This document shows, piece by piece, positions 21,535 to 49,703 of a DNA stretch of 64,000 nt. Both the position numbers and the translations under genes were made by a program. The notes beneath the pieces are model-generated. The model was given only the letters and a program-made list of their open reading frames with translations, searched no databases and was not told where the DNA came from. The first letter of the stretch is position 1. Each line of letters opens with the position of its first letter. The DNA is taken from the sequence record OZ035795.1, one strand, 5' to 3'. Source of the stretch: Krischvirus LF73P4.

Positions 21535-22346
21535 TGAAGAAAGCATTAGGTTTAATTCCCTATACGGGCAATAAGGAAAAGTTATTGCCTGGTGTTAGTA
21601 AGTATTTCCCTAAGCACTATAACCGCTTTGTCGATGCCTTTTGTGGCGGTTTGAGCGTGTCTCTGTACGTCGAAGGGGATGTTCTGGCTAATGACTATGA
21701 TCACCGCTTAATTGATGCTTACAAAGCGATTGACGAGTGTCCTGATCCGGTTTTTATGATCAAGCGGATTATTGCCGAAAATGGTTTGTCTCGTGATGAT
21801 AAAGATGCTTACATGGCATTCCGTAAGAAGTATAATGAGAATCCAGATCCGCTATCTCTGTTTGTTCTGATTCAGCACAGTTTTAGCAACATTAACCGCC
21901 ATAACCGGAAGGGCGAATTTAATGCTAATTTTGGTCGCCGGACTTTTAACGAAAACGCGGTAGAGCGTGTCCTGAATTTTAAGGAAGAAAACAAAGACGG
22001 TCGAATCAATTTTACGTCTGGTCGTTATGACGAGATCGAGATCTTGCCCGGTGATTTCGTTTATTTGGACCCGCCGTACCTTATCACTTCTGCGGAATAT
22101 AATAAGTTCTGGAGTGACGAGGAAGAGATTAAATTCTATCAGTGGGTGGAATCTATTATGGCGCGTGGTTTTCAGTTTGGTATCAGTAATGTCACGCATC
22201 ATAAGGGAAAGGTAAATGATCATCTTCTTGACTTTATCAAGCGGAATGATCTAAACTGCGTCCTGTTGAATAAGACCTATTGCCTAGATCGTTCAGGTGG
22301 CAAGTCTTCTGATACGCAAGAAGTTTATGTAACTAACGTAGATTGA
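21534..22346 (+). CDS. dam: DNA adenine methyltransferase (Dam)
   Basis: 270 aa; PYTGNK, FxKHYNRFVDAFCGGLSV (AdoMet motif), DPPY catalytic motif, collinear with T4 Dam. Confidence 0.85.
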   Translation: MKKALGLIPYTGNKEKLLPGVSKYFPKHYNRFVDAFCGGLSVSLYVEGDVLANDYDHRLIDAYKAIDECPDPVFMIKRIIAENGLSRDDKDAYMAFRKKYNENPDPLSLFVLIQHSFSNINRHNRKGEFNANFGRRTFNENAVERVLNFKEENKDGRINFTSGRYDEIEILPGDFVYLDPPYLITSAEYNKFWSDEEEIKFYQWVESIMARGFQFGISNVTHHKGKVNDHLLDFIKRNDLNCVLLNKTYCLDRSGGKSSDTQEVYVTNVD

Positions 22347-22354
22347 GGTATAAT

Positions 22355-22636
22355 ATGGTAGAAATTTTTGGTTTTGAAGGTTACAACTGTAAGTATTGCC
22401 AGAATGCAAAGCGCCTTTGTGAATCGCGTAAGATCCCTTACATCTACATTCCGGTTAATGATGGTGTAGACGAAAACGGTCGTCCGGTAAAGATTGATTC
22501 TATCATTGCCGACATTCAGGATCGCGCAGGGGTAGAAGTTATTGCCACCATGCCGCAGATTTTCTATAATGGTGATTATATAGGTGGTTTTGATGAGTTC
22601 AGATCCTTTGTAGTCAAAAACAAGATTAATGGTTAA
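22355..22636 (+). CDS. nrdC: glutaredoxin/thioredoxin-like protein
   Basis: 93 aa; CKYC active-site motif near N-terminus, PQIFxNGxYIGGFDE C-terminal glutaredoxin signature; assignment to nrdC is by position/size. Confidence 0.6.
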   Translation: MVEIFGFEGYNCKYCQNAKRLCESRKIPYIYIPVNDGVDENGRPVKIDSIIADIQDRAGVEVIATMPQIFYNGDYIGGFDEFRSFVVKNKING

Positions 22637-22660
22637 ATACCTTCTTTGGAGGGTGAATTT

Positions 22661-23134
22661 ATGTTACTGACTGCTAAGAGTGCTAAAGAGTACAAACAAG
22701 AACTATTCGAAAAACAGGGGGGCATTTGCCCCCTTTGTCAATTGCCCCTTTTTGAGGATATGAGCAAAAACCATCTTGACCACGACCACGATCTAGATGG
22801 GAAAGGTCAAGGCCGTGTAAGGGGATTGCTTCATTCGTGTTGCAACCGCCTAGAAGGATCGTTGACCGGAGACTTTAAGCGGTTTGGAGTTGGTGCTTTA
22901 GGTGCTGATTTCGTTGTTTGGGCTACAAACTATGTTAATTACATCAAAGGAGACTACACCAACAATCATTTACATCCTCAATATGCTGTTGATAAAGTAA
23001 AACGATTTTCACGCTTGACACGCGCGGAGATGGTTGCTATTATGGACGCAGAAGGTTTCGATTACTGCGACGCTGATACACGAGAAGAAATCACGAAGAA
23101 GTATAAGAAACAATTTATACAAAGATTAAGATAG
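22661..23134 (+). CDS. 49: recombination endonuclease VII
   Basis: ATG 22661 after GGAGGGTG; collinear with T4 endo VII (CxLCQ, NHLDHDH, GxVRGLL, CNxxEG, SRLxxxEM). Confidence 0.85.
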   Translation: MLLTAKSAKEYKQELFEKQGGICPLCQLPLFEDMSKNHLDHDHDLDGKGQGRVRGLLHSCCNRLEGSLTGDFKRFGVGALGADFVVWATNYVNYIKGDYTNNHLHPQYAVDKVKRFSRLTRAEMVAIMDAEGFDYCDADTREEITKKYKKQFIQRLR

Positions 23135-23137
23135 TGG

Positions 23138-23166
23138 TTGACAATAAGAAATGGGAGTAGTAAAAT
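23138..23166 (+). promoter_or_regulatory. PeSL-type promoter
   Basis: TTGACA 23138-23143, palindrome GGGAGTAGTAAAATACTCCC, TAAAAT -10. Confidence 0.65.
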
Positions 23167-23197
23167 ACTCCCATCTAATCAAGAAGGAGAATCAACA

Positions 23198-23470
23198 ATG
23201 CGTAAGATGTTTAAAGCTGGTGTGGCCTATGTTTTTAAATCTGAGCAAGCACGTAAAGACTTCTTAGAGGACGACTACGAAGGTCTGAAAGATACCTACG
23301 AAGCAATCAAGAATGGATTTACTGTTCTTAAAGTGTCACCTATTGGTTATGTAAGTGAAATCTCGGTTGATGGGAAAACCTACACCGCTAAAGACTTTGA
23401 TCCGCGTTGGGAATTTATGCTGCTTCCATGTGACCGCATTCTGTTTCGTGCTGTTCAATTAGTGAAATGA
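23198..23470 (+). CDS. paralogue-family protein, one module
   Basis: 90 aa; shares the GFxVLKV...G.V.EI.VDGxxYTAxDF module with following ORFs. Confidence 0.55.
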   Translation: MRKMFKAGVAYVFKSEQARKDFLEDDYEGLKDTYEAIKNGFTVLKVSPIGYVSEISVDGKTYTAKDFDPRWEFMLLPCDRILFRAVQLVK

Positions 23471-23484
23471 TAGAGGATTATATT

Positions 23485-24051
23485 ATGGTACAGAAAACGT
23501 ATAAATTGTATCCGGCTAAGTCTTCAAATGATGCTGTTTTTGAACGAGGTCGTTATTACACTTTCCGTAATGCTGAGTCCGCAGTGGAATTTGTTAAACG
23601 CTATCCACAACATAACAAATTCCTGCATGATGTGCTTCGCAATGGCTTTAAAGTTCTGACGGTTAATGTTATGGGTAAAGTGTATTTGGTAGAAACTCAT
23701 GATTATGAGGGCGCGTCAATAATGATTGATGCAAGCGAGCGAAAATACTTTAAACGCATCACTAAAAAGCAGTTTGAAGAAATGAAACCAGTTAAGAAAG
23801 AAGAATCTCTGGAAGACCTGATTAACTTGTTTGCGAAGTCTTCTTTGGTGTCATTGACGCTGGAAGATTTTAGCTTTGATAATCAGCTATACTTTAAAAA
23901 TGCAGATGACTTGAAAGATTTTCTGATTGAGAATAAACCTAAGCTAGAAACCTATATCAAAGGTGAGCTTAAGCGCATGGAACATCAAGCAAAATATAGC
24001 GCCGATAAAGTAGCTGAACTGAAAGAGATCCAAAAGTCATTTAACGCTTGA
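23485..24051 (+). CDS. paralogue-family protein, one module + helical tail
   Basis: ATG after GAGGATTATATT; module YYTFRN...GFKVLTV...ERKYFKRITKKQFEEM. Confidence 0.55.
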   Translation: MVQKTYKLYPAKSSNDAVFERGRYYTFRNAESAVEFVKRYPQHNKFLHDVLRNGFKVLTVNVMGKVYLVETHDYEGASIMIDASERKYFKRITKKQFEEMKPVKKEESLEDLINLFAKSSLVSLTLEDFSFDNQLYFKNADDLKDFLIENKPKLETYIKGELKRMEHQAKYSADKVAELKEIQKSFNA

Positions 24052-24076
24052 CATGATGAAACGGGAGTAGTAAGAT
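24048..24076 (+). promoter_or_regulatory. PeSL-type promoter
   Basis: TTGACA 24048-24053, palindrome GGGAGTAGTAAGATACTCCC, TAAGAT -10. Confidence 0.65.
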
Positions 24077-24107
24077 ACTCCCATCTAAACAACGAGAGGA
24101 TTATATT

Positions 24108-25286
24108 ATGGCTAAATTCTTTGAAGGTCATTACTATGCATTCCGTGAAGGCGGTAAAGATGAGTTTCTAGACTTTTCTCGCTATTCAATTATTCTGACC
24201 GATGCTTCGCGCCGTGGTCATATTCGGGTTGCTGAAATCGTAGAAAAGGGCTTTAAAGTATTAGAAAAAGATGACCACGGTCATGTTATTACTATTGAAG
24301 CTGGAGATGTAGTTTATTCCGCTAATGATATTGTTGATTATTGGGCTACTATGATTATGAACAATGAGCGCAAATACTTTAAACGTATCTCAAAAGAGGC
24401 ATACGAAGCGATGAACAAGAAAGAGGATGCAATGCCGACTTACTTTGAAAAAGGTAAATGTTATTCGTTTACCCCAGAAGGTTTGCAAGAATTTAAGCGA
24501 TTCTGGGGAGAGCATGACCCAGAGCACAAAGAAGCTATGAAACTTGTTGATTTTGTCGAATATGGCTTTTTAGTTGAAGAAGAATTGCACGGATCAGCTA
24601 CCATGATCACCGCGAAAGGTGAAACTGTTAAGGCAGATCGTTTTTGTGACCAATGGAATTGCTTGTTTGACGGTAGCGAATTTGAATACTTCGCGGAAAT
24701 CACGCGAGTTGAATATGTCCGTATGCAGGAGCGTGGTCAGAGATTTAAAGTAGGCGAACGCTACAAACCAAATCCACATAATTTGCCTCATTGGTTTAAC
24801 ACTGAAACCGTATCCAGTCATGTTATTGAAATTGTTCAAAAGCTGGAACATGGATTTAAGGTAACTAAAGTAGATTCTTTCGGAAGTGTTGACGCGGTTG
24901 AAATTGATGGTGTAGAATATACACCGAAATCTTTCGGGCTTTGCTGGTATCACTTGATCAGCAATGATGAACGTTATAACTTTGTTGAACTGCCATCTGA
25001 ACCGGAAGAAGCACTAGAAGATCATGATCATCTGTCTGAACTGGTTAAGCTGTTTGGTGATCTGCCGGATGGTGTGGGTGTTGCGGTAATGGGTGAAGGT
25101 ACTGTTATTCGCAACCTGAAAGACCTTAAAAAGTTCTTGATCGACATGCTTCCTAAACTCGATGAGAATCTAGATACAGATATTCAGAATCGCAAAGAAA
25201 TTGTTAAAGAGACTGAAAAAGAGATCGAAGAGATTCGAGCAATTCGCCAGAAGGTGAAAGCAGTAAAGAAAAAAGTTAGTGTTTGA
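24108..25286 (+). CDS. paralogue-family protein, about four modules + helical tail
   Basis: 392 aa with internal repeats (YYAFRE.../CYSFTPE.../RYKPNP...), each ending in an (E/D)RKYF / EFEYF / ERYNF motif. Confidence 0.6.
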   Translation: MAKFFEGHYYAFREGGKDEFLDFSRYSIILTDASRRGHIRVAEIVEKGFKVLEKDDHGHVITIEAGDVVYSANDIVDYWATMIMNNERKYFKRISKEAYEAMNKKEDAMPTYFEKGKCYSFTPEGLQEFKRFWGEHDPEHKEAMKLVDFVEYGFLVEEELHGSATMITAKGETVKADRFCDQWNCLFDGSEFEYFAEITRVEYVRMQERGQRFKVGERYKPNPHNLPHWFNTETVSSHVIEIVQKLEHGFKVTKVDSFGSVDAVEIDGVEYTPKSFGLCWYHLISNDERYNFVELPSEPEEALEDHDHLSELVKLFGDLPDGVGVAVMGEGTVIRNLKDLKKFLIDMLPKLDENLDTDIQNRKEIVKETEKEIEEIRAIRQKVKAVKKKVSV

Positions 25287-25310
25287 CATGCGAAGGGAGT
25301 ATGCTATAAT
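25283..25310 (+). promoter_or_regulatory. PeSL-type promoter
   Basis: TTGACA 25283-25288, palindrome GGGAGTATGCTATAATACTCCC containing TATAAT. Confidence 0.65.
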
Positions 25311-25340
25311 ACTCCCACTTAACAACGAGAGGATTATATT

Positions 25341-25835
25341 ATGTGGGTACAAGATGTTTGGTATACTGTAACTAAAGAAAACCTTGACGCATTCAGCGAC
25401 CAATCTTGCGCTAATAGCTCAATTGCTGGTATACTTACTGATGTGTTTGGTGGTGTTGATAAAATTCGTTTTAAAGTTGTTGTTAGTTCGATGGGGCATG
25501 TGCAAGATCTTTACACCGAAGATAAAGACCTTGATCTTGAACTTCGTCTTCGTATTGAGAATGCAAGTCTAGGTTATTGGTTTGAAGATAACGAGTATGA
25601 ATACTTCACACCAGCAATTAAAGTTTTTGCAACTAAACTGGAAGCTGTACTAAATCTCCGACCAATTAATGTTGACGGTTACATTATCAAAAATATTCAG
25701 GAGTGGGATTCATATCTAGATCAGATTATCCGAAATAGTAAGCAGGAAGCCGCTAATAAGAAGCGACAAGAGATCAAACAACTGAAAGCTGAACTGGAAG
25801 CGGCGGAAAAAGAATTAGCAGAACTGGTAAAATAA
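25341..25835 (+). CDS. hypothetical protein (possible divergent family member, coiled-coil tail)
   Basis: 164 aa; EYEYFTPAIK motif and C-terminal KQLKAELEAAEKELAEL. Confidence 0.5.
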   Translation: MWVQDVWYTVTKENLDAFSDQSCANSSIAGILTDVFGGVDKIRFKVVVSSMGHVQDLYTEDKDLDLELRLRIENASLGYWFEDNEYEYFTPAIKVFATKLEAVLNLRPINVDGYIIKNIQEWDSYLDQIIRNSKQEAANKKRQEIKQLKAELEAAEKELAELVK

Positions 25836-25844
25836 CTATCAACG

Positions 25845-25867
25845 AGCGGGAGAAATCCCGCTTTTTC
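25845..25867 (+). terminator. rho-independent terminator
   Basis: AGCGGGA-GAAA-TCCCGCT hairpin + TTTTT. Confidence 0.6.
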
Positions 25868-25879
25868 ATAGGTGATACA

Positions 25880-27742
25880 ATGGAAAAACTAATCAAAGAC
25901 ATTACAGAGATCGCAACGGGTAAAGAAAACGAAGTAAGCAAAGAGAACGCGAACAAAGACGCGCGAACATTCCCGACACGTCGAGATCTGATTGCTGGTG
26001 CTGTGTCTAAACAGATTGCTAAAACCGTGTTACCTGAGCACATCTATAAAGCGCATGTAGACGGTGACATTCATTATCATGATATGGATTATGCACCCGC
26101 TATGCCGTTTACTAACTGCTGTCTTGTTAATCTCAAAGACATGTTAGAGAATGGTTTTAAATTGGGTAGCGCACAAATCGAAAGTCCGAAATCAATCGGC
26201 GTTGCTTGTGCTGTAACCGCTCAAATTATCGCACAGGTGGCAAGTCATCAATATGGCGGGACCACAATTGCAAACATCGATCAGGTTTTAGCGCCATACG
26301 TTGAGAAAACATATCATAAACACCTTGCTGATGCCGAAACCTACGGAATCAAAGCGGATACTCTCTATGCACAAGAGAAGACAGAAAAAGAAACGCTAGA
26401 CGGGTATCAAGCGTTGGAATATGAAATCAACACTTTGTTCTCCACCAACGGTCAAACACCTTTTGTGACTTTAACATTTGGTATGGGTACTAGCTGGGAA
26501 GAAAAACTGATTCAGAAAGCGATCCTGAACGTTCGAACTAAAGGTTTAGGTAAAGATGGTATCACTCCGGTGTTTCCTAAGCTGGTGATGTTCTTAGAAG
26601 AAGGATTAAACCTTAAACCGGAAGATCCGAACTACGACATTAAGCAACTTGCATTGGAATGTTCTAGTAAGCGTCTTTACCCTGATTATATCTCTGCGAA
26701 GAATAACCGTAGTATCACCGGATCTAGTGTTCCGGTTAGCCCGATGGGTTGTCGTAGCTTCCTGGGTGTGTGGCATAATGAGAAAGGCGAAGAAGTATTA
26801 GACGGACGTAATAACTTAGGTGTTGTGACTCTGAATCTTCCGCGTATTGCCCTTATTGCCGCTCGTCGTGCTGGTAAAGCGTCTGTAATGCGCAGAATTG
26901 AGCTATTCGAACAAGAGCTAGCTAATCGTATGCCTATTTGCTTTGATGCGCTCATGAGTCGCGTAGACGCTTTAAAAGGGGCTAAAGCCAATGTTGCTCC
27001 GGTGCTGTATACAGAAGGTGCATTTTTCCGTATTCATCAAAACGATGAAATTTTGGAAGTGCTGAAAGATGGTCGCGCTAGTATCTCTCTTGGATATATT
27101 GGTTTACATGAGGTATTGAGCGTCCTGTTTGGTGTTCATCCGTTTGATTCGGAAGATGCGCAGCGATACGGTAAACATATTCTTAAGATCTTGCGTCATT
27201 ATACTGAAAAATGGAAGGACGAAACCGGACTTGGGTTTAGTCTTTACGGTACTCCAGCCGAGAGCCTTTGCTATCGATTTAATCGACTGGACCGAGAGCA
27301 ATTTGGTATTGTTAAGGGTGCTACCGATAAAGACTGGTACACCAACTCATTCCACCTTGACGTAGACCGGAAAGTCACACCGTTTGAGAAAATCGACTTT
27401 GAGAAAGATTATCACTGGCTGGCGTCCGGTGGCATGATCTCTTATGTTGAGTTCCCAGACATGAAAAACAACCTGAAAGGTCTTGAAACTGTAGTAGACT
27501 ATGCAATGGATAAATTGCACTACTTCGGTGTTAATACTCCTTCTGATGTATGTCATGTATGCGGATCTAATAAGGAAATGAGAGCGACCGAGTCTGGTTT
27601 TGTTTGCCCTGATTGCGGCAATGACAATCTGGAAAAGATGAATGTTATCCGTCGCGTTAGTGGATATCTTGGATCTGTTGATCTGCGTCCATTTAACCAC
27701 GGGAAACACTCCGAGATGGTAAACCGCGTTAAGCACATGTAA
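25880..27742 (+). CDS. nrdD: anaerobic ribonucleotide reductase, intron-less
   Basis: 620 aa; class III RNR features incl. C-terminal zinc ribbon CHVCG...CPDCG and glycyl-radical motif RRVSGYLG. Confidence 0.9.
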   Translation: MEKLIKDITEIATGKENEVSKENANKDARTFPTRRDLIAGAVSKQIAKTVLPEHIYKAHVDGDIHYHDMDYAPAMPFTNCCLVNLKDMLENGFKLGSAQIESPKSIGVACAVTAQIIAQVASHQYGGTTIANIDQVLAPYVEKTYHKHLADAETYGIKADTLYAQEKTEKETLDGYQALEYEINTLFSTNGQTPFVTLTFGMGTSWEEKLIQKAILNVRTKGLGKDGITPVFPKLVMFLEEGLNLKPEDPNYDIKQLALECSSKRLYPDYISAKNNRSITGSSVPVSPMGCRSFLGVWHNEKGEEVLDGRNNLGVVTLNLPRIALIAARRAGKASVMRRIELFEQELANRMPICFDALMSRVDALKGAKANVAPVLYTEGAFFRIHQNDEILEVLKDGRASISLGYIGLHEVLSVLFGVHPFDSEDAQRYGKHILKILRHYTEKWKDETGLGFSLYGTPAESLCYRFNRLDREQFGIVKGATDKDWYTNSFHLDVDRKVTPFEKIDFEKDYHWLASGGMISYVEFPDMKNNLKGLETVVDYAMDKLHYFGVNTPSDVCHVCGSNKEMRATESGFVCPDCGNDNLEKMNVIRRVSGYLGSVDLRPFNHGKHSEMVNRVKHM

Positions 27743-27747
27743 TTTTC

Positions 27748-27774
27748 AGCCGATCCGAAAGGGTCGGCTTTTTC
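27748..27774 (+). terminator. rho-independent terminator after nrdD
   Basis: AGCCGATCC-GAAA-GGGTCGGCT hairpin + TTTTT. Confidence 0.65.
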
Positions 27775-27785
27775 GTTTTGGGGTG

Positions 27786-27813
27786 TTGACAACCTGATTA
27801 GCTAATGTATAAT
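27786..27813 (+). promoter_or_regulatory. sigma70-like early promoter
   Basis: TTGACA 27786-27791, TATAAT 27808-27813, conserved leader CACATCGAAAAC. Confidence 0.6.
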
Positions 27814-27842
27814 GCTCACATCGAAAACAACGAGAGGACAAC

Positions 27843-28385
27843 ATGATGATGATGTTTTGTGTACTGAGCAAAGAAGTTAAACTTCGTAAACTGGAAATTG
27901 GCGATGGTGTTGTTGTTAAAATGCACGCTAGCACATTGGCTAGTTTTAATTTAAAGGAAAGTTTTTTTATTAGAGGAACGGTGGTTAATATCTGCTGGAG
28001 TCAAGGCGAAGGAATCCGTAGCTTTTGCGTAATTGACGATGATAATAACCTGTATGTGATTCGCTATCATAATAATTCTGTATTGGTCTATACCGACAAT
28101 TCACGAGAATTATATACTCTTGAATTTGTTAAGCGTACTGATTGCGACCGATTTGTTCGTGCTTATGAAGAAGATGGCTGTTTTGCGACTGAAACAGAAA
28201 CAAATGAATATGTTCCTATGGAAGTAGGGGCAGAAATTAAACACAAGATCACGGATCGTATTTTTAAGGTTGTGGCGGTTGCTCATACTCAATTTGTAGC
28301 GCAAGCGCCGGATGAAGAATTTATTATCTACAATATTGGTAATGCAAGTTCTCATTTTCATAATGTACTATATCGCGACCTTTGA
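27843..28385 (+). CDS. hypothetical protein
   Basis: 180 aa; no recognised motif. Confidence 0.5.
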   Translation: MMMMFCVLSKEVKLRKLEIGDGVVVKMHASTLASFNLKESFFIRGTVVNICWSQGEGIRSFCVIDDDNNLYVIRYHNNSVLVYTDNSRELYTLEFVKRTDCDRFVRAYEEDGCFATETETNEYVPMEVGAEIKHKITDRIFKVVAVAHTQFVAQAPDEEFIIYNIGNASSHFHNVLYRDL

Positions 28386-28402
28386 TAATGTGTGAGGTGA
28401 AT

Positions 28403-28930
28403 ATGAAATCATTAAACCGTAAGCGTAAAGCACAACGACACAAAGAACGAGCTAAAAAGATTGCTATTGAACTGGTTGAGCGTGAGGATAGCTATTTGTC
28501 TACGGGTCGTTTGTATACATTCCATGCATTGATTGATGGTAAGCTAGTGTTGCATAATCATGATTGTTTGGCACTGTTTCACGAGATCGAACCAATCCAT
28601 CGTGAATGGGATGACAACAAAGCAAAAGGACAATATTTCCTTACTTGTTCGTGTGGTCATGCTGGATGTGCTGGATATTGGGAACCTGTTACTATCCGTG
28701 AGAAAAATGATACCATTCAATGGGTCGCCCGTACCCGCGATGGTTATGATAAAGGTGCTGATGGTACTGGCGATAACGTAGTTTACTTTAATCGTGATTG
28801 GTATTATATGGCGCGATGTATGATCCTGTTTTATCTTGACTCGATGCCGTATGAATATTTCAGTTTCCAGAATGGGACCGAACTGACAGGGAAGGAATGG
28901 TCTGACTACATTCGAAAAAATTTAAAATAA
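28403..28930 (+). CDS. hypothetical protein (basic N-terminus, CSCGHAGCAG)
   Basis: ATG 28403 after GTGAGGTGAAT; 175 aa. Confidence 0.5.
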   Translation: MKSLNRKRKAQRHKERAKKIAIELVEREDSYLSTGRLYTFHALIDGKLVLHNHDCLALFHEIEPIHREWDDNKAKGQYFLTCSCGHAGCAGYWEPVTIREKNDTIQWVARTRDGYDKGADGTGDNVVYFNRDWYYMARCMILFYLDSMPYEYFSFQNGTELTGKEWSDYIRKNLK

Positions 28931-28934
28931 ATGC

Positions 28935-28963
28935 TTGACGGGGATCGCGAGATCCCCTATACT
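28935..28963 (+). promoter_or_regulatory. PeSL-type promoter (hairpin GGGGATCGCGAGATCCCC in spacer)
   Basis: TTGACG 28935-28940, 17-nt hairpin spacer, TATACT. Confidence 0.65.
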
Positions 28964-29005
28964 ATATTCATCAAGACGAGATACAACTTTACAGGAGAAT
29001 CAAAT

Positions 29006-29158
29006 ATGTGGACTTTACTGATTTGGGAAACTGAAAACGCACAAGTAGAAATCCGTGAATACGAATACCTAAGCCCAGCTTATCTATTGGCATCTCGCGG
29101 TGGTTACTATAAAGCGCAGATTGTAAACGAGTTCGGGGTAATTGAATATGAGTTCTGA
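29006..29158 (+). CDS. hypothetical small protein (50 aa)
   Basis: ATG after AGGAGAATCAAAT; internal start of track ORF 28931-29158. Confidence 0.4.
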   Translation: MWTLLIWETENAQVEIREYEYLSPAYLLASRGGYYKAQIVNEFGVIEYEF

Positions 29159-29651
29159 TACATACGGAAAACTACGCTATGCCGATATTAAAGATTGTGA
29201 TATGGTTAACGGTGAGGGAGTGAGAGTCTCCCTTTACGTTACCGGATGTTCACACGCATGTGATGGTTGCTTTAATGCTAGCCTACTCAATCCTAAGAAC
29301 GGGGAACCATTCACCGATGATACAATGGGATTGATTCTGGATCTGCTTAGACCTGATTTTATTCAGGGGCTAACATTCTTAGGTGGCGATCCACTGTATA
29401 AACGCAATTTAAAGGGTGTACAGCGGATCATCGATGAAGTAAAATCATGGATGCCAAATAAAGATATTTGGCTATGGTCCGGTTATACCCTTGACCAATT
29501 GAATGATGAGCAAAGAAAAATCGTAGAATCAGTTGACATGTTCATCGATGGGCGTTATATTAAAGATATGCCAACGAAGAAGCCGTGGCGGGGGTCTGAC
29601 AATCAAGTACAATACAAGATTGTTAATAGTATTCCAGTAAAAATTATTTGA
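29148..29651 (+). CDS. nrdG: anaerobic RNR activating enzyme (radical SAM)
   Basis: CSHACDGC (CxxxCxxC) cluster, GLTFLGGDPLY, DIWLWSGY, KKPWRGSDNQ as in T4 NrdG. Confidence 0.85.
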   Translation: MSSDTYGKLRYADIKDCDMVNGEGVRVSLYVTGCSHACDGCFNASLLNPKNGEPFTDDTMGLILDLLRPDFIQGLTFLGGDPLYKRNLKGVQRIIDEVKSWMPNKDIWLWSGYTLDQLNDEQRKIVESVDMFIDGRYIKDMPTKKPWRGSDNQVQYKIVNSIPVKII

Positions 29652-29661
29652 GGTGATTGCT

Positions 29662-30150
29662 ATGAAATGGGAATTGGGTAAGATGTACACTCTTGATGGT
29701 GATGAGAAGAAAGCAGAATTTACCAAATCTGAACTGTCAATCAACCGTCAAGTTGCTGAGTTTCTTGATGGACGTCCTTTTACAGTCGAGGTTATGAGTA
29801 ATGAGGGTCATGTTCTTGAAATCTCGTTAAGTGATGGTAAATGTATTTCTGTTCGAGACACTCCAATTGGTGCGCACGGTGCATGGTTTTGGGCTGGTGA
29901 ACGTCGATTCTTTAAAGAAGTTAAAGAACCAGATCTAACTTTAGAACGTCTGGGTCTGCTTATGGAAGCCTACGACATTCAGTTAATCGATAAGACGGGG
30001 TTACAACATAGTATTGCCAAAATTACTACCCTAGAAGGTATTAAGAGCGTTCTAAATGGTATGCCTAGCCGGATTGGTGCTATCCGCGAATACAAGCAAA
30101 CGCGAGACCGTATGATCCAATTAGAATCACGTATCAAAAATGAGAGATAA
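29662..30150 (+). CDS. MKWE-family paralogue 1
   Basis: ATG 29662; MKWELGKMYT...RPFTVEV...GERRFFKEVKE module + helical tail. Confidence 0.55.
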   Translation: MKWELGKMYTLDGDEKKAEFTKSELSINRQVAEFLDGRPFTVEVMSNEGHVLEISLSDGKCISVRDTPIGAHGAWFWAGERRFFKEVKEPDLTLERLGLLMEAYDIQLIDKTGLQHSIAKITTLEGIKSVLNGMPSRIGAIREYKQTRDRMIQLESRIKNER

Positions 30151-30154
30151 TATT

Positions 30155-30640
30155 ATGAAATGGGAAGAAGGTAAGACCTATGCGTTGGTTGGCGAATACG
30201 AAAAGCGTATTTTGCGTGATTGTTGGAGTTACGAACAAAGACCTAATATTGATGGTATGTTTACATATCTAGATAAACCATTTACTGTCGCTACGGTAGA
30301 CCGTTGGGGTAATGTGCGTTCAATCTATAATCACGAAGGGGATTATATTAGTTCTATCGATATTGGTGATAATATATGGTTTTCCGATGGTGACCGAGCG
30401 TGCTTCAAAGAAGTTTTATTACCTGGTCATGAATATGATCTAATAGACCTTCTCAAATTGGCGATGGATAATTATAAAATCCGCTTTGAATGCAAATCAC
30501 ATGCGGCTATCGGTGCTAACGCCTTGCGTCATATCTCCAGTTTTGAAGAGTTGAAAGATTTTCTTGACAAAATGCCGGAAAGGGTGCAAGCTATACAGGA
30601 AGCAGAGAAAGCATTAAACGAACTTGATAAAATCGGTTAA
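30155..30640 (+). CDS. MKWE-family paralogue 2
   Basis: MKWEEGKTYA...KPFTVATV...GDRACFKEVLL module + helical tail. Confidence 0.55.
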   Translation: MKWEEGKTYALVGEYEKRILRDCWSYEQRPNIDGMFTYLDKPFTVATVDRWGNVRSIYNHEGDYISSIDIGDNIWFSDGDRACFKEVLLPGHEYDLIDLLKLAMDNYKIRFECKSHAAIGANALRHISSFEELKDFLDKMPERVQAIQEAEKALNELDKIG

Positions 30641-30652
30641 GGGGAATATATT

Positions 30653-31477
30653 ATGAAATGGGAAATTGGTAAAACTTACACTTGGAAAGATGAAAACGCT
30701 AAAACTGAGTTTATTACTAACGGAGAAGGTGTTCTTTCTCCACTTAACAGCGATATTAGTGCATCTATTGGTGACAAGCCATTTACCATCATCGAGATCG
30801 ATGGCAACGGTTGGATTAATGCAATAGAGCTAGACGGTGTTTATCATACGGCGAAAACTGCTACAGGAAAAGACATTTGGACTGCAACATATTTCTTTAG
30901 TCCATTCGATAGAAAATTCTTTCGTGAAGTTGAAGAAGTTCCCCAGAAATGGGAAGTTGGTAAAACTTATACTTGGAAAGATGTGAATGCTATGACAGAC
31001 TTCTGCCATTATGCTGAAAACGTATCTAACCTTAATTATGTTATTGCACGAGCAATAAATTATAGACCTTTTACTGTTAAAAATGTTAGTCCATGTGGGC
31101 AAATTGATGTAATTGAAATTGATGGTAAAGACCATACTCTAATGAGCGCAACCGAAGATAGAGACCATAAAGGAACTAGCTGGTTTATTGATTCTGATAG
31201 AAAATTCTTTCGTGAAGTAGAAGAATTGGAAGTTATAACCACTGATTCTAAAATCGTTGGACAGTTGAAACGTCTGTTTAGTAGTCGTTACGGCCTGACA
31301 ATGGTTAAATTTGGCGAAGCAAATGAAGGTAAAACCTTTGAACGTTTCGATGATTTCATCGCAGCACTTGACAAGATGGACGAAATAATGCAAGATCGCC
31401 AGAAGATTAAAGACCTTCAAGAAGACATTAAACGTCGTGAAGTTGAATTTTTGATTGGTAAAGAGCGAGGATGGTAA
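30653..31477 (+). CDS. MKWE-family paralogue 3 (internal duplication, two modules)
   Basis: MKWEIGKTYTWKD...FDRKFFREVEEV then QKWEVGKTYTWKD...SDRKFFREVEELE; near-identical DNA repeats at 30657/30948 and 30908/31198. Confidence 0.6.
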   Translation: MKWEIGKTYTWKDENAKTEFITNGEGVLSPLNSDISASIGDKPFTIIEIDGNGWINAIELDGVYHTAKTATGKDIWTATYFFSPFDRKFFREVEEVPQKWEVGKTYTWKDVNAMTDFCHYAENVSNLNYVIARAINYRPFTVKNVSPCGQIDVIEIDGKDHTLMSATEDRDHKGTSWFIDSDRKFFREVEELEVITTDSKIVGQLKRLFSSRYGLTMVKFGEANEGKTFERFDDFIAALDKMDEIMQDRQKIKDLQEDIKRREVEFLIGKERGW

Positions 31478-31478
31478 T

Positions 31479-31958
31479 ATGTTTGTTGTTGGTATGACCT
31501 ATCAGTGGAAAAACGATCGAGCGCGGAAAGCCTTTGCAACCAGTGTTGCAAATGATGCAATAGCAGACTTTATCGGTGACCGTACATTTAAAGTTATCGC
31601 TTTTGAAAAAATTGCGTCAGATATCGAATATGTTTCTGCGATTGAAATTGATGGAAAAACATACACCTGTCGAGATGTTGATGATGTACGGGAATACGCG
31701 CACAACTGGTTTTTGCAATCAGAAGAACGTTATTTTAAAGTGGTGTCGTCAGAACTGACTACTGATGCAATGTTGGAACAATTTTTCAACAACTACGAAG
31801 TTTCTGTACGTCGCTATGGCGAAGAAGAAGTGTTTAAAATCGATGATTACAATCAGTTTAAACGAGTATTCGCCACTAAGTTGCAGCGTGACTTTGAACG
31901 TGACCAACGGATCAAGGAACTGGAAGAAGAATTGGAAAGATTAAAGGCTGAGAAATGA
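31479..31958 (+). CDS. MKWE-family paralogue 4 (divergent)
   Basis: MFVVGMTYQWKND...EERYFKVV module, C-terminal coiled coil RIKELEEELERLKAEK. Confidence 0.5.
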   Translation: MFVVGMTYQWKNDRARKAFATSVANDAIADFIGDRTFKVIAFEKIASDIEYVSAIEIDGKTYTCRDVDDVREYAHNWFLQSEERYFKVVSSELTTDAMLEQFFNNYEVSVRRYGEEEVFKIDDYNQFKRVFATKLQRDFERDQRIKELEEELERLKAEK

Positions 31959-32224
31959 TCGAGATATACGGTATACCGAAAGAGGCTTATCATTGTTATG
32001 GTTGTATTAGTGCAATGAAGCTACTGGATGATCTGGGTATTCCGTATACACTTAAACCAGTATTCAAGCAGGTCGGGGTTGACATTATTCCCGACCGTGA
32101 TATGATTGAAGAACTGGCGGGGAGGCTAAACTCAAAGAGCCTCCGGTTTGTATACCCCCAGATATTCATTGACAACGAGCACATTGGAGGCTATAAAGAA
32201 CTGAGGGCGATTTATGATTATTGA
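31955..32224 (+). CDS. nrdH: glutaredoxin-like protein (NrdH-like)
   Basis: 89 aa; CYGC active site, PQIFIDNEHIGGYKEL glutaredoxin-type C-terminus; assignment to nrdH is tentative. Confidence 0.55.
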   Translation: MIEIYGIPKEAYHCYGCISAMKLLDDLGIPYTLKPVFKQVGVDIIPDRDMIEELAGRLNSKSLRFVYPQIFIDNEHIGGYKELRAIYDY

Positions 32225-47290: not shown

Positions 47291-47608
47291 ATGGATAAGA
47301 AACCAACAAGTTTAGAAGAAGCACACAGCTTGATTCAAGAAGCAATGAAGACAGTTATCCAGGAACTGATAATTGTTGATGAAGAGGGAGAACATCATAT
47401 TGTCTATATTCATAATGTTGAATACGATCCAGACACTAAAGGTATTATGGTCGACTACTCCACGCCGTCAGATCGTGATGTGGTATATCCACACGTCATT
47501 AAGGCGTTAACCGCGCAGATCAAAGAAGCAGAAGAAAAGTTGAAAAAAGAAACTTTCTGGTATAAACTCAAGACCTTTGTTATGCGTGTAGTTGGGGGCT
47601 ATGTATGA
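47291..47608 (+). CDS. hypothetical protein (gene-40 position)
   Basis: 105 aa; GAGGATTATATTATG start; positional only. Confidence 0.4.
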   Translation: MDKKPTSLEEAHSLIQEAMKTVIQELIIVDEEGEHHIVYIHNVEYDPDTKGIMVDYSTPSDRDVVYPHVIKALTAQIKEAEEKLKKETFWYKLKTFVMRVVGGYV

Positions 47609-49017
47609 TTAAAACTATCTTTTCACAGTTGATTTACAATGGCGCATTCTTTACGAATGTATGGCCTCACCTTAAAGCGGACTACTTCACCGAAGACGAA
47701 GAAAAACTGATTTATAAGCTGATTAAAAAGCACGTAGACGAATATTCCAATATTCCTACGCCAACAGCATTACAGATTGCTTTAGACAAGGAGAGAGGCA
47801 ATCAGACAACATATGAAGGGGCGAAAACTCTTCTTGATTCGCTTGAGAATACACCGGAAGACCTTGATTGGTTAATGAAGGAAACCGAAAAATTTATTCG
47901 TGACCGCGCTATGTATAATGCAATGTCACGGGCGCTAGAGATTCAGGCGAACGCACAACTACCAAAAGAGAAACAGAATAAGAAATTGCCTAGTGAGGGC
48001 GCTATTCCTGAAATTATGCAGGAAGCACTATCCATTACGTTTGATTCTGATGTAGGTCATGACTGGTTTAATGACTTTGAAAAACGATTCTTGCTATATC
48101 AGACTAAGGCGAATAAGATCCCATTTAAGCTGCCGATGTTGAATAAAATCACGAAAGGAGGGGCGGAAAGAAAAACGCTAAATGTGTTGCTTGCTGGTGT
48201 AAACGTTGGTAAATCGCTTGGATTGTGTTCTCTTGCTGCGGATTATATGGAATGTGGTTATGATGTATTGTATATCTCAATGGAGATGGCAGAGCATGTC
48301 GTAGCCAAACGTATCGACGCAAACTTGCTTGACATTACATTAGATGAATTGGATAATGGTAATGTTTCTTTTGCGGAATATTCCGCACGCATGAAGCGTG
48401 TTAAGAATAAGAAGATCGGGGATCGTCCGGTTGGAAAATTGATGATCAAGCAGTATCCGACTGGTGGCGCGAACTCCAATCACTTTGAGGCGTTAATGAA
48501 TGAATTGCGACTCAAGAAACAGTTTAAACCTGATGTTGTGATTGTTGACTATCTTGGGATTTGCGCATCGTCTCGCTTGCGTGTATACTCTGAAAATAGT
48601 TACACACTAGTTAAGGCGATTGCGGAAGAACTGCGAGGATTTTTTGTTAAGTGGGATGTTGTTGGTTGGACTGCGGCACAGACTACCCGCGCTGGTTGGG
48701 ATGCTTCCGACCTTAACATGAGTGATACCGCTGAATCAGCAGGTCTTCCGGCTACAGCCGACTTTATGTTGGGTGTTATCGAAACCGAAGACCTGGCTAA
48801 AATGGGCGTCCAACTCATGAAGCAGATCAAGTCTCGTTACGGTGATAAGAACTATTATTCACGGTTTAACGTTGGTGTGAAGAAAGGCAATCAGCGTTGG
48901 TATGAAGTACCAAACCAGATCGCAGATCAGGAGAACGCACAAGTTAAACCACAAAGCGCACAGCAAGCCGAGAAACGCGAAAAACTCGACGAGCTAGCAA
49001 ATACCATGACTTTCTAA
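47605..49017 (+). CDS. 41: replicative DNA helicase gp41 (DnaB-like)
   Basis: 470 aa; Walker A AGVNVGKS, Walker B DVVIVDYLG, DnaB-family architecture. Confidence 0.9.
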   Translation: MIKTIFSQLIYNGAFFTNVWPHLKADYFTEDEEKLIYKLIKKHVDEYSNIPTPTALQIALDKERGNQTTYEGAKTLLDSLENTPEDLDWLMKETEKFIRDRAMYNAMSRALEIQANAQLPKEKQNKKLPSEGAIPEIMQEALSITFDSDVGHDWFNDFEKRFLLYQTKANKIPFKLPMLNKITKGGAERKTLNVLLAGVNVGKSLGLCSLAADYMECGYDVLYISMEMAEHVVAKRIDANLLDITLDELDNGNVSFAEYSARMKRVKNKKIGDRPVGKLMIKQYPTGGANSNHFEALMNELRLKKQFKPDVVIVDYLGICASSRLRVYSENSYTLVKAIAEELRGFFVKWDVVGWTAAQTTRAGWDASDLNMSDTAESAGLPATADFMLGVIETEDLAKMGVQLMKQIKSRYGDKNYYSRFNVGVKKGNQRWYEVPNQIADQENAQVKPQSAQQAEKREKLDELANTMTF

Positions 49018-49067: not shown

Positions 49068-49703
49068 ATGATCGCTAATGCTTTACCGCCAAAATGGATC
49101 GTAAGTCGCTTTTATACTCTCAAGGAAGGTAACGCACCTGATGGTCGTCCGATCCGAGATCTGTTTCTGGAGATGACTACAGCCGAAGCACAGTTTTATA
49201 ATGATCTGACAGACGATAAGCCATTTCTCGTAAATTCGGTGGACCTCGATGGCAATGTCACATCAATCATCACACATGGTGGGGGAGTGAAAAATATTAC
49301 TTCTCTGCGTGATCACGGTTGGGAAATTGCTTGTGTATTTCCTGCGGATGTACGCGGATTCTTTGATGAGGTATCTGATATTAAAGTAAATGCACTGGAA
49401 CCATATGACGAGATCCCACCACTGAAAGAAGAAAAAGAGTTGACACCGGAAGATGTAGATAGTACACTACACCCCGACCTATTTAAGAAGATTAGCGGTT
49501 TATGGACTGTTACCCTGTATCCAACCGCATTAGGTCTAGAATTGGGTATGCCAACTTATTCTGATATTGATAATTGGACTAAGCATATTGATAAAGATGT
49601 TGAAAAACAGCGAAATAATGCTAAAATGCAACTTAAAGAGAAACGCAAAGATCTTGAACGACAACTGAAAGAAACAAAACGTTTGCTTTCTACATTCGCT
49701 TGA
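49068..49703 (+). CDS. hypothetical protein
   Basis: 211 aa; C-terminal charged coiled-coil. Confidence 0.45.
   Translation: MIANALPPKWIVSRFYTLKEGNAPDGRPIRDLFLEMTTAEAQFYNDLTDDKPFLVNSVDLDGNVTSIITHGGGVKNITSLRDHGWEIACVFPADVRGFFDEVSDIKVNALEPYDEIPPLKEEKELTPEDVDSTLHPDLFKKISGLWTVTLYPTALGLELGMPTYSDIDNWTKHIDKDVEKQRNNAKMQLKEKRKDLERQLKETKRLLSTFA

Follow-up and report, generated by a model that had tools for sequence, protein, structure and literature searches.

A 64-kb stretch of phage DNA (record OZ035795.1; 64,000 nucleotides, hereafter termed the window) carries four consecutive genes whose products begin with the residues MKWE or a variant and are annotated 'hypothetical' in every record, the third of them containing two modules with nearly identical ends. 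The locus raises two questions: to what family do these proteins belong, and does the internal repetition of the third gene record a very recent duplication that is still going on, as a preliminary description of the DNA proposed, or an older arrangement whose parts are exchanged among related phages? The source is a Krischvirus, a T4-type coliphage akin to RB49, JSE, Phi1 and ECD7.

Taking our explanation as a whole, we regard it as probable that the four genes (g1-g4) form a tandem array in which the GoF/Frd.2/MotB.1 family, early accessory proteins of T4-type phages, has expanded. The third gene, g3, is an old two-barrel gene and not a fresh duplication, and the N-terminal modules of g1 and g2 are swapped as cassettes between old alleles, with the neighbouring C-terminal domains remaining nearly identical. 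The GoF family itself was already known; its tandem arrays, multi-barrel proteins and exchange between genomes go unmentioned in the paper that defined it.

The MKWE array and its relationship to GoF

Open reading frames (ORFs) and their translations confirm the preliminary description of four consecutive genes with MKWE-type or variant starts, namely MKWELGKMYT (g1), MKWEEGKTYA (g2), MKWEIGKTYT (g3) and the variant MFVVGMTYQW (g4), and with modules closing in FF(K/R)EV-like motifs (FFKEV, CFKEV, FFREV twice, and YFKVV). An N-terminal module of about 90 amino acids (N-module) is common to all four proteins, each of which comprises one or two acidic barrels followed by a conserved C-terminal alpha/beta domain (C-domain). 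The genes are as follows, with expectation values (E) for matches to PHROG profiles:

29662-30150, plus strand: g1, an ORF with a GAGG Shine-Dalgarno sequence; N-module (amino acids 1-89) at 29662-29928, C-terminal domain at 29929-30147; phrog_5347 (E 2e-44) and phrog_622 (E 8.5e-12)
30155-30640, plus strand: g2; N-module at 30155-30421, C-terminal domain at 30422-30637; phrog_5347 (E 8e-58)
30653-31477, plus strand: g3; module A at 30653-30937, linker VPQ, module B1 at 30944-31225, C-terminal domain at 31226-31474; phrog_5347 (E 8e-93, two stretches matched) and phrog_622 (E 4.9e-18)
31479-31958, plus strand: g4; N-module at 31479-31751, then a C-terminal domain; phrog_5347 (E 4e-53) and phrog_622 (E 2.6e-6)

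Membership of g1-g4 in phrog_5347 is accompanied by matches to PHROGs named 'goF mRNA metabolism modulator'. T4 GoF and Frd.2 belong to phrog_622 (E 5e-38 and 4e-46), and T4 GoF matches phrog_5347 in return (E 6.5e-7). A profile hidden Markov model (HMM) built from eleven modules of the window, when used to interrogate 1408 T4 ORFs, ranked goF (3e-9), frd.2 (3e-5) and motB.1 (0.11) at the top; these same three T4 proteins, GoF being also termed ComC-alpha, form the 'phage LSm-like fold' family of Kim et al. 2025 (PMC12152347).

Predicted fold and phylogenetic range

The N-terminal module is predicted to be a bent, five-stranded antiparallel SH3/LSm-like beta-barrel of about 90 residues. In the AlphaFold2 (AF2) model of g2 the N-module has a predicted local distance difference test score (pLDDT) of 85-93, as against 52-74 for the C-domain, and the barrel strands, also at pLDDT 85-93, occupy residues 8-11, 43-48, 54-58, 64-66 and 84-87. 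Two such units are modelled in g3, whose two HMM domains lie at 30653-30937 and 30944-31225; over the g2 and g3 models the pLDDT of the N-modules is about 90. The C-domain, modelled with lower confidence than the barrel, consists of a helix, two strands and two helices, an alpha/beta arrangement that ends in a long helix. The most conserved residues of the family, G6, Y9, F84 and V87, lie within the first and last strands of the barrel.

A Foldseek search of viral models (BFVD) retrieved 53 relatives at E <= 1e-3. Many targets are unnamed, and nearly every one with a name comes from a T4-type phage, several genera being represented; phAPEC8 is a possible exception. Sequence homologues were found exclusively on Krischvirus-like contigs, beyond which a word-indexed profile search did not reach, and amount to 57 representatives among 1.84 billion proteins. 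As delimited by these searches, the family is confined to T4-type (Straboviridae) phages. Pfam searches with eight proteins yielded sub-threshold noise only, with no LSM or Hfq match even at E <= 1, and none of the homologues has a precomputed Pfam domain. Assignment to Hfq/Sm (LSm) proper was rejected on this ground, the closest structural neighbours not being Sm/Hfq rings and the surface not being basic; membership in FeoA (PF04023) likewise found no support in sequence.

Age of the two-module gene

Each of the two modules of g3 is bounded by a pair of short repeats, either of which occurs exactly twice in the window, versus 0 occurrences expected from 100 shuffles:

30656-30692, plus strand: start-of-module repeat, copy 1, 37 nucleotides (nt), coding KWEIGKTYTWKD
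30947-30983, plus strand: start-of-module repeat, copy 2, with 2 mismatches in 37; 5' boundary of the exchangeable B cassette
30908-30937, plus strand: end-of-module repeat, copy 1, 30 nt, coding DRKFFREVEE
31196-31225, plus strand: end-of-module repeat, copy 2, with 1 mismatch in 30; 3' boundary of the B cassette and deletion junction

The start repeat reads AAATGGGAA(A/G)TTGGTAAAACTTA(C/T)ACTTGGAAAGATG and the end repeat GATAGAAAATTCTTTCGTGAAGT(T/A)GAAGAA; the KWEVGKTYTWKD stretch codes the first strand of the barrel and the DRKFFREVEE stretch its last. The near-identical DNA in the two modules, as previously described, is thus real, at positions 1-2 nt away from those first given.

That description took these 37-nt and 30-nt stretches to indicate a very recent internal tandem duplication, still in progress, and the differing number of modules among related phages could be cited in its favour. 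We consider it very improbable. At the protein level modules A and B share 49% identity, and in a protein-guided codon alignment their DNA is 80% identical at the ends and only about 45% in the interior, where identical residues use the same codon in 9 of 22 cases versus 8.7 expected from codon usage; codon sharing at this chance rate implies that synonymous sites are saturated. Region 29600-32000, which is 99.1% identical to phage vB-Eco-KMB43, is matched by 58 Krischvirus records, and in 52 of these, including RB49 (AY343333), JSE, Phi1 and GEC-3S, the same 825-nt gene with modules A and B1 and the C-domain (A-B1-C) is present at 100% coverage and 90-99.6% identity, that is, in genomes differing by up to 10% in g3. 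The two-module gene therefore predates the radiation of the known genus. Metagenomic homologues with as little as about 82% protein identity keep this arrangement too, as do homologues with a different B allele at as little as 65%. Nor is duplication seen to be ongoing: the variants observed, detailed below, are losses or replacements of B, with no gain of new copies.

The same distribution bears on the possibility that the second module is an assembly artefact, a repeat collapsed or expanded by short-read assembly. The existence of repeats at the module ends is the only point in its favour; the gene recurs in 52 independent records, and an assembler could not make one module from the other across some 200 nt of differing interior. 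An artefact is therefore virtually ruled out.

The likeness of the ends calls for a different account. Here identical residues share the same codon in 18 of 23 cases versus 10.8 expected (P ~0.0016), the interior serving as control, and the two end copies agree in both of their arginine codons (AGA, then CGT) and in the TTC-TTT pair. We prefer to see these near-identical ends as motif-coding sequence whose likeness is maintained by constraint together with recombination or gene conversion. Purifying selection acting on the two structural motifs, combined with phage codon bias, might suffice without recombination, the variants then arising from unrelated events: the motifs are the first and last barrel strands, they contain the family's most conserved residues, and the preferred codons AAA, GAA, GGT and ACT dominate the end stretches. 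The excess of shared codons, the matching arginine and TTC-TTT codons, and the positions of the deletion and replacement junctions, which fall within the end stretches, nevertheless make selection by itself a distinctly unlikely explanation.

Loss and replacement of module B

Comparative genomics bore out the expectation that module copy number varies among related phages, and the matching module ends prove to be real crossover points at which these phages lose or swap module B. Among the 58 records, g3 takes three forms: A-B1-C (52 records); A-B2-C, a gene of 834 nt with an unrelated allele, B2, in place of B (3 records: UPWr_E1, JK32 and FL04); and A-C, a gene of 534-537 nt without module B (3 records: AV108, E26 and ELT4). 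The same forms recur in the protein database, at 274, 277 and 174-185 amino acids respectively. In the DNA alignment with UPWr_E1, the divergence of B2 begins directly past the start-of-module repeat and re-converges around the end-of-module motif. At L007, the sole A-C locus examined, the deletion junction lies within the 30-nt end repeat, with the B1-type linker ELEVIT coming next. A-C forms carry linkers of either the B1 type (EELEVIT) or the B2 type (VKEPE), which suggests at least two independent losses of module B.

Suspected absence of module B from MIZ4 and phiS (79% megablast coverage) was rejected, the uncovered parts being divergent N-modules of g1 and g2. A metagenomic contig, L010 (2501-3438), bears a collapsed array in which the first half of a g1 allele is fused in frame to a B2 tail at GAYGATGATGKTGATG, an imperfect microhomology of about 18 nt; this chimera, which rests on a single assembly, is accompanied by absence of g2 and module A and by a split g4.

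Exchange of N-terminal modules among genomes

A sliding comparison with four genomes showed flanks and C-terminal domains at 90-100% identity, and N-modules of g1, g2 and g3 module B falling to 36-65% in some genomes. The g1 N-module has a second allele in ECD7, MIZ4, phiS and L007, with 0.37 nonsynonymous (dN) and 1.4-1.5 synonymous (dS) substitutions per site; dS of the g1 C-domain is about 0.2 in MIZ4, phiS and L007, and 0.70 in ECD7, where the C-domain is frameshifted. Overall, divergent g1 and g2 alleles have N-module dS values of 1.1-1.5 versus 0.1-0.2 in the adjacent C-domain, from which it follows that the alleles are old and were brought in by recombination rather than evolved in place. 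For g2 there are at least three N-module alleles (mean pairwise identity 58%, minimum 39%, versus 97% for the C-domain), and database homologues repeat the pattern, with C-domains 91-97% and N-modules 58-76% identical. The N-module of g4 has a dN of 0.11-0.26 versus 0.025-0.03 in its C-domain, a 4-10-fold excess, at broadly comparable dS (0.37-0.80 and 0.31-0.69). Paralogous modules have runs of 20-25 identical bases in common at their starts.

Alleles of g1, g2 and g3 module B are reassorted from genome to genome: (a, a, B1) in the window, (b, a, B1) in ECD7, (a, a, B2) in UPWr_E1, (b, b, B1) in MIZ4, (b, b, none) in L007 and (a, c, none) in L009. The frameshift in the C-terminal domain of ECD7 g1 (L001, 9063-9554) and the collapsed array of L010 point either to members that the phage can spare or to sequence errors in these records.

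Related genes elsewhere in the window

The preliminary description linked the MKWE genes, through their C-terminal motif, to a family at 23198-25286. This relationship holds and is wider than proposed: it spans the whole N-module and not the C-terminal motif alone, as judged by comparison of MKWE modules with those of the second cluster (hhalign probability 97.8%, E 8e-13) and by PHROG cross-matches. In DNA, a dot plot of the MKWE array against 23100-25900 gave nothing above E 0.02 and no significant sharing. The second cluster and a further gene comprise:

23198-23470, plus strand: a1, N-module only, 90 amino acids; phrog_16115, also phrog_5347 (E 2.5e-8)
23485-24051, plus strand: a2, one module and a C-terminal domain; phrog_8944 'goF' (E 2e-98); noted as 'Frd.2' in the ECD7 record
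24108-25286, plus strand: a3, modules at 24108-24398, 24435-24707 and 24738-24995 (three HMM domains) and a C-terminal domain; phrog_8944 (E 5e-209) and phrog_622 (three stretches matched)
25341-25835, plus strand: a4, one divergent module and a coiled-coil tail; phrog_15067, and phrog_3710 (E 2e-4)
49068-49703, plus strand: ninth family gene, 211 amino acids, with the twelfth module at 49092-49376 and a coiled-coil tail; phrog_16187

RefSeq labels two genes of the 23198-25835 cluster goF or frd.2. Both a1 and a4 fall within alignment A2, and a4 matches g4 by BLASTP (E 9e-5). Unlike the MKWE array, the cluster at 23100-25900 is collinear in 56 of 58 records; KFS-EC (MH560358) covers 69% of it, with a deletion of about 870 nt and two annotated genes instead of four.

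The ORF at 49068-49703, which lay outside the HMM training set, matches the module HMM (E 3e-8) and has the motif GFFDEV, as in T4 GoF. T4 gp61.2, suspected to be a relative of this ORF, was rejected after the window's module HMM gave no match to it. The ORF comes immediately after the gp41 helicase gene (47605-49017), a curious position in that T4 goF mutants act on gene 41 mRNA.

Predicted properties and proposed role

All five MKWE modules are acidic (isoelectric point, pI, 4.7-5.4; net charge -3 to -6), as are the T4 domains, versus a pI of 9.7 for the Hfq core. This bears on the notion that the barrels are Hfq-like RNA chaperones controlling the stability of phage or host mRNA, with allelic variation reflecting different RNA targets. 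The name LSm-like given to the fold by Kim et al. 2025 points that way, as does the reported stabilisation of gene 41 leader RNA by GoF(D25Y), the one mutant for which an effect on mRNA stability is known. D25Y and G84R are gain-of-function changes that allow T4 growth on rho mutants, and alignment A3 places Lys or Arg opposite G84 in four of five MKWE modules (K88 and K184 of g3, R82 of g1, R84 of g4) and a natural Tyr opposite D25 in module B1 (Y120 of g3), a lead and not a test. Set against these points are the acidity of the modules, the lack of a Pfam LSM or Hfq match, and reports that wild-type GoF and MotB.1 do not stabilise RNA and gave no ring oligomers with AlphaFold 3 (AF3), so that we regard RNA chaperones as a rather unlikely reading. 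Because the five modules are acidic, wild-type GoF lacks RNA stabilisation, and D25Y and G84R each lower the acidity of the protein, binding of protein rather than RNA may be favoured, a view that we hold with low confidence.

The variable barrel and constant C-domain argue that specificity is located in the barrel and that its binding partner is variable. We propose that homologous recombination during co-infection, with motif-coding sequence and the conserved C-domain as flanks, would move barrels between genomes and paralogues, and that the same process would keep module ends homogenised. Specificity would then reside in the barrel, whose most likely ligand is a variable protein of host or phage, and the C-domain would serve as a constant part for dimerisation or docking; GoF and MotB.1 are reported to migrate as dimers. 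The MKWE genes would be expressed early, with nrdG and nrdH, and would serve accessory functions that the phage can do without, perhaps with a bearing on mRNA metabolism like that of T4 goF mutants. Natural variants in which members are lost or frameshifted hint that the genes may be non-essential.

More tentatively still, and at what we take to be less than even odds, the array between nrdG and nrdH may serve an intracellular function as a hypervariable locus of specificity. Exchangeable acidic SH3-like barrels would be carried on a conserved C-terminal 'handle' and reassorted by recombination at motif-coding microhomologies in co-infection, in the manner of tail-fibre adhesin domains; the driving force would be an arms race against host factors that vary, such as defence systems or proteins of RNA metabolism and transcription. 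If so, the GoF family would represent a phage toolkit of swappable binders and not of RNA chaperones.

Several points weigh against our explanation of g1-g4 as an expanded GoF-type array reassorted by recombination. AF2 confidence for the C-domain is low to moderate (pLDDT 35-74), and hhalign, with shallow alignments, found no significant match between the two clusters' C-domains (probability 1.8%), so that their relatedness draws only on full-length PHROG and BLASTP alignments. The direction of events is unproved, B having been either lost from A-B-C or inserted into A-C. Excess codon sharing at the module ends is counted over 23 codons, and local codon preference could explain part of it. 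Early co-transcription is deduced only from promoter-like sites, from cassettes resembling promoter-early stem-loops (PeSLs) that precede a1, a3, a4 and the gene following nrdD, and from the tight packing of nrdG, g1-g4 and nrdH.

Comparison with known systems

The GoF family and the MKWE proteins have in common the N-terminal barrel, the motifs [FW]-x-x-G-x-x-Y, PF-x-V and [DE]-R-x-F-F-x-E-V, reciprocal profile matches, the same structural neighbours (FeoA-type SH3 barrels), an order of N-terminal domain, linker and variable C-terminal domain, and restriction to T4-type phages with no Pfam family. They differ in that T4 has three dispersed single-module genes, whereas the window holds nine genes and twelve modules in all, including two tandem arrays and two- and three-module proteins, and in that the MKWE subfamily (phrog_5347) possesses a C-terminal domain peculiar to it. 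Kim et al. 2025 (PMC12152347) make no mention of tandem arrays, multi-module proteins or exchange of cassettes between genomes. Neither FeoA/SH3-like small barrels nor Hfq/Sm proteins are related in sequence to MKWE modules: no metal-binding histidines are reported for GoF, and the modules lack Sm motifs and ring assembly and are acidic, not basic.

Motif-mediated domain swapping in the T-even tail-fibre adhesins gp37/gp38 was reportedly described by Tetart, Desplats and Krisch in 1998, a study cited in PMC3157838. There, as in the MKWE array, short conserved motif-coding flanks around hypervariable specificity segments are the recombination sites for swap or duplication between related phages; the adhesins, however, are receptor-binding proteins of the virion under host-range selection, whereas MKWE proteins are small, probably intracellular early proteins.

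Within the same genus, modules of phi1/RB49 are shuffled by means of PeSL cassettes (Arbiol et al. 2010, PMC2839356). As in the MKWE array, units are inserted, deleted and replaced between close relatives at short repeats, and PeSL-like cassettes flank the 23198-25835 genes of the window; but PeSLs are intergenic and move whole genes, whereas MKWE repeats are coding and intragenic and move domains in frame. The genes nrdG, nrdH and frd.2 go unmentioned in Arbiol et al. 2010, as do goF and frd.2 in Nolan 2006.

The T4 gene goF has lacked an explanation ever since the rho-suppressor studies, and its family was recognised only in 2025. The Krischvirus arrays show that this family expands to at least nine genes and at least twelve barrels within 64 kb, that barrels can be strung in tandem within one protein, and that in nature the barrel is the fast-changing, exchangeable part and the C-terminal domain is held constant. 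They illustrate clearly how domains of a non-structural phage protein can be shuffled in frame at coding microhomologies, with natural allele sets available for g1 (a/b), g2 (a/b/c) and g3 (B1/B2/none).

Genomic context

The genes around the two clusters, all on the plus strand, and the PeSL-like cassettes are as follows:

22343-22636, plus strand: nrdC-like gene
22646-23134, plus strand: gp49 endonuclease VII
23198-25835, plus strand: four related genes a1-a4, between gp49 and nrdD
25880-27742, plus strand: nrdD
29142-29651, plus strand: nrdG, directly before the MKWE array
29662-31958, plus strand: MKWE array, four genes g1-g4, between nrdG and nrdH
31955-32224, plus strand: nrdH, directly after the MKWE array
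23138-23200, 24048-24110, 25283-25343 and 27748-27845: PeSL-like cassettes, upstream of a1, a3, a4 and the gene after nrdD, respectively

Between nrdD and nrdG, at 27843-29158, are three small conserved ORFs (phrog_14838, phrog_8242 and phrog_4653) of unassigned function, which show no relation to the GoF family. The PeSL-like cassette is a repeated unit consisting of TTGACA, a -10 element within the stem-loop GGGAGTA...TACTCCC, and GAGAGGA followed by ATG. None of these cassettes occurs within the MKWE array, where promoter-like sites were unconvincing, one of them, at 30624-30652, abutting the g3 start codon. The window is itself a mosaic, region 23100-25900 being nearest to phage FL15 (99.9%) and the MKWE region nearest to KMB43 (99.1%).

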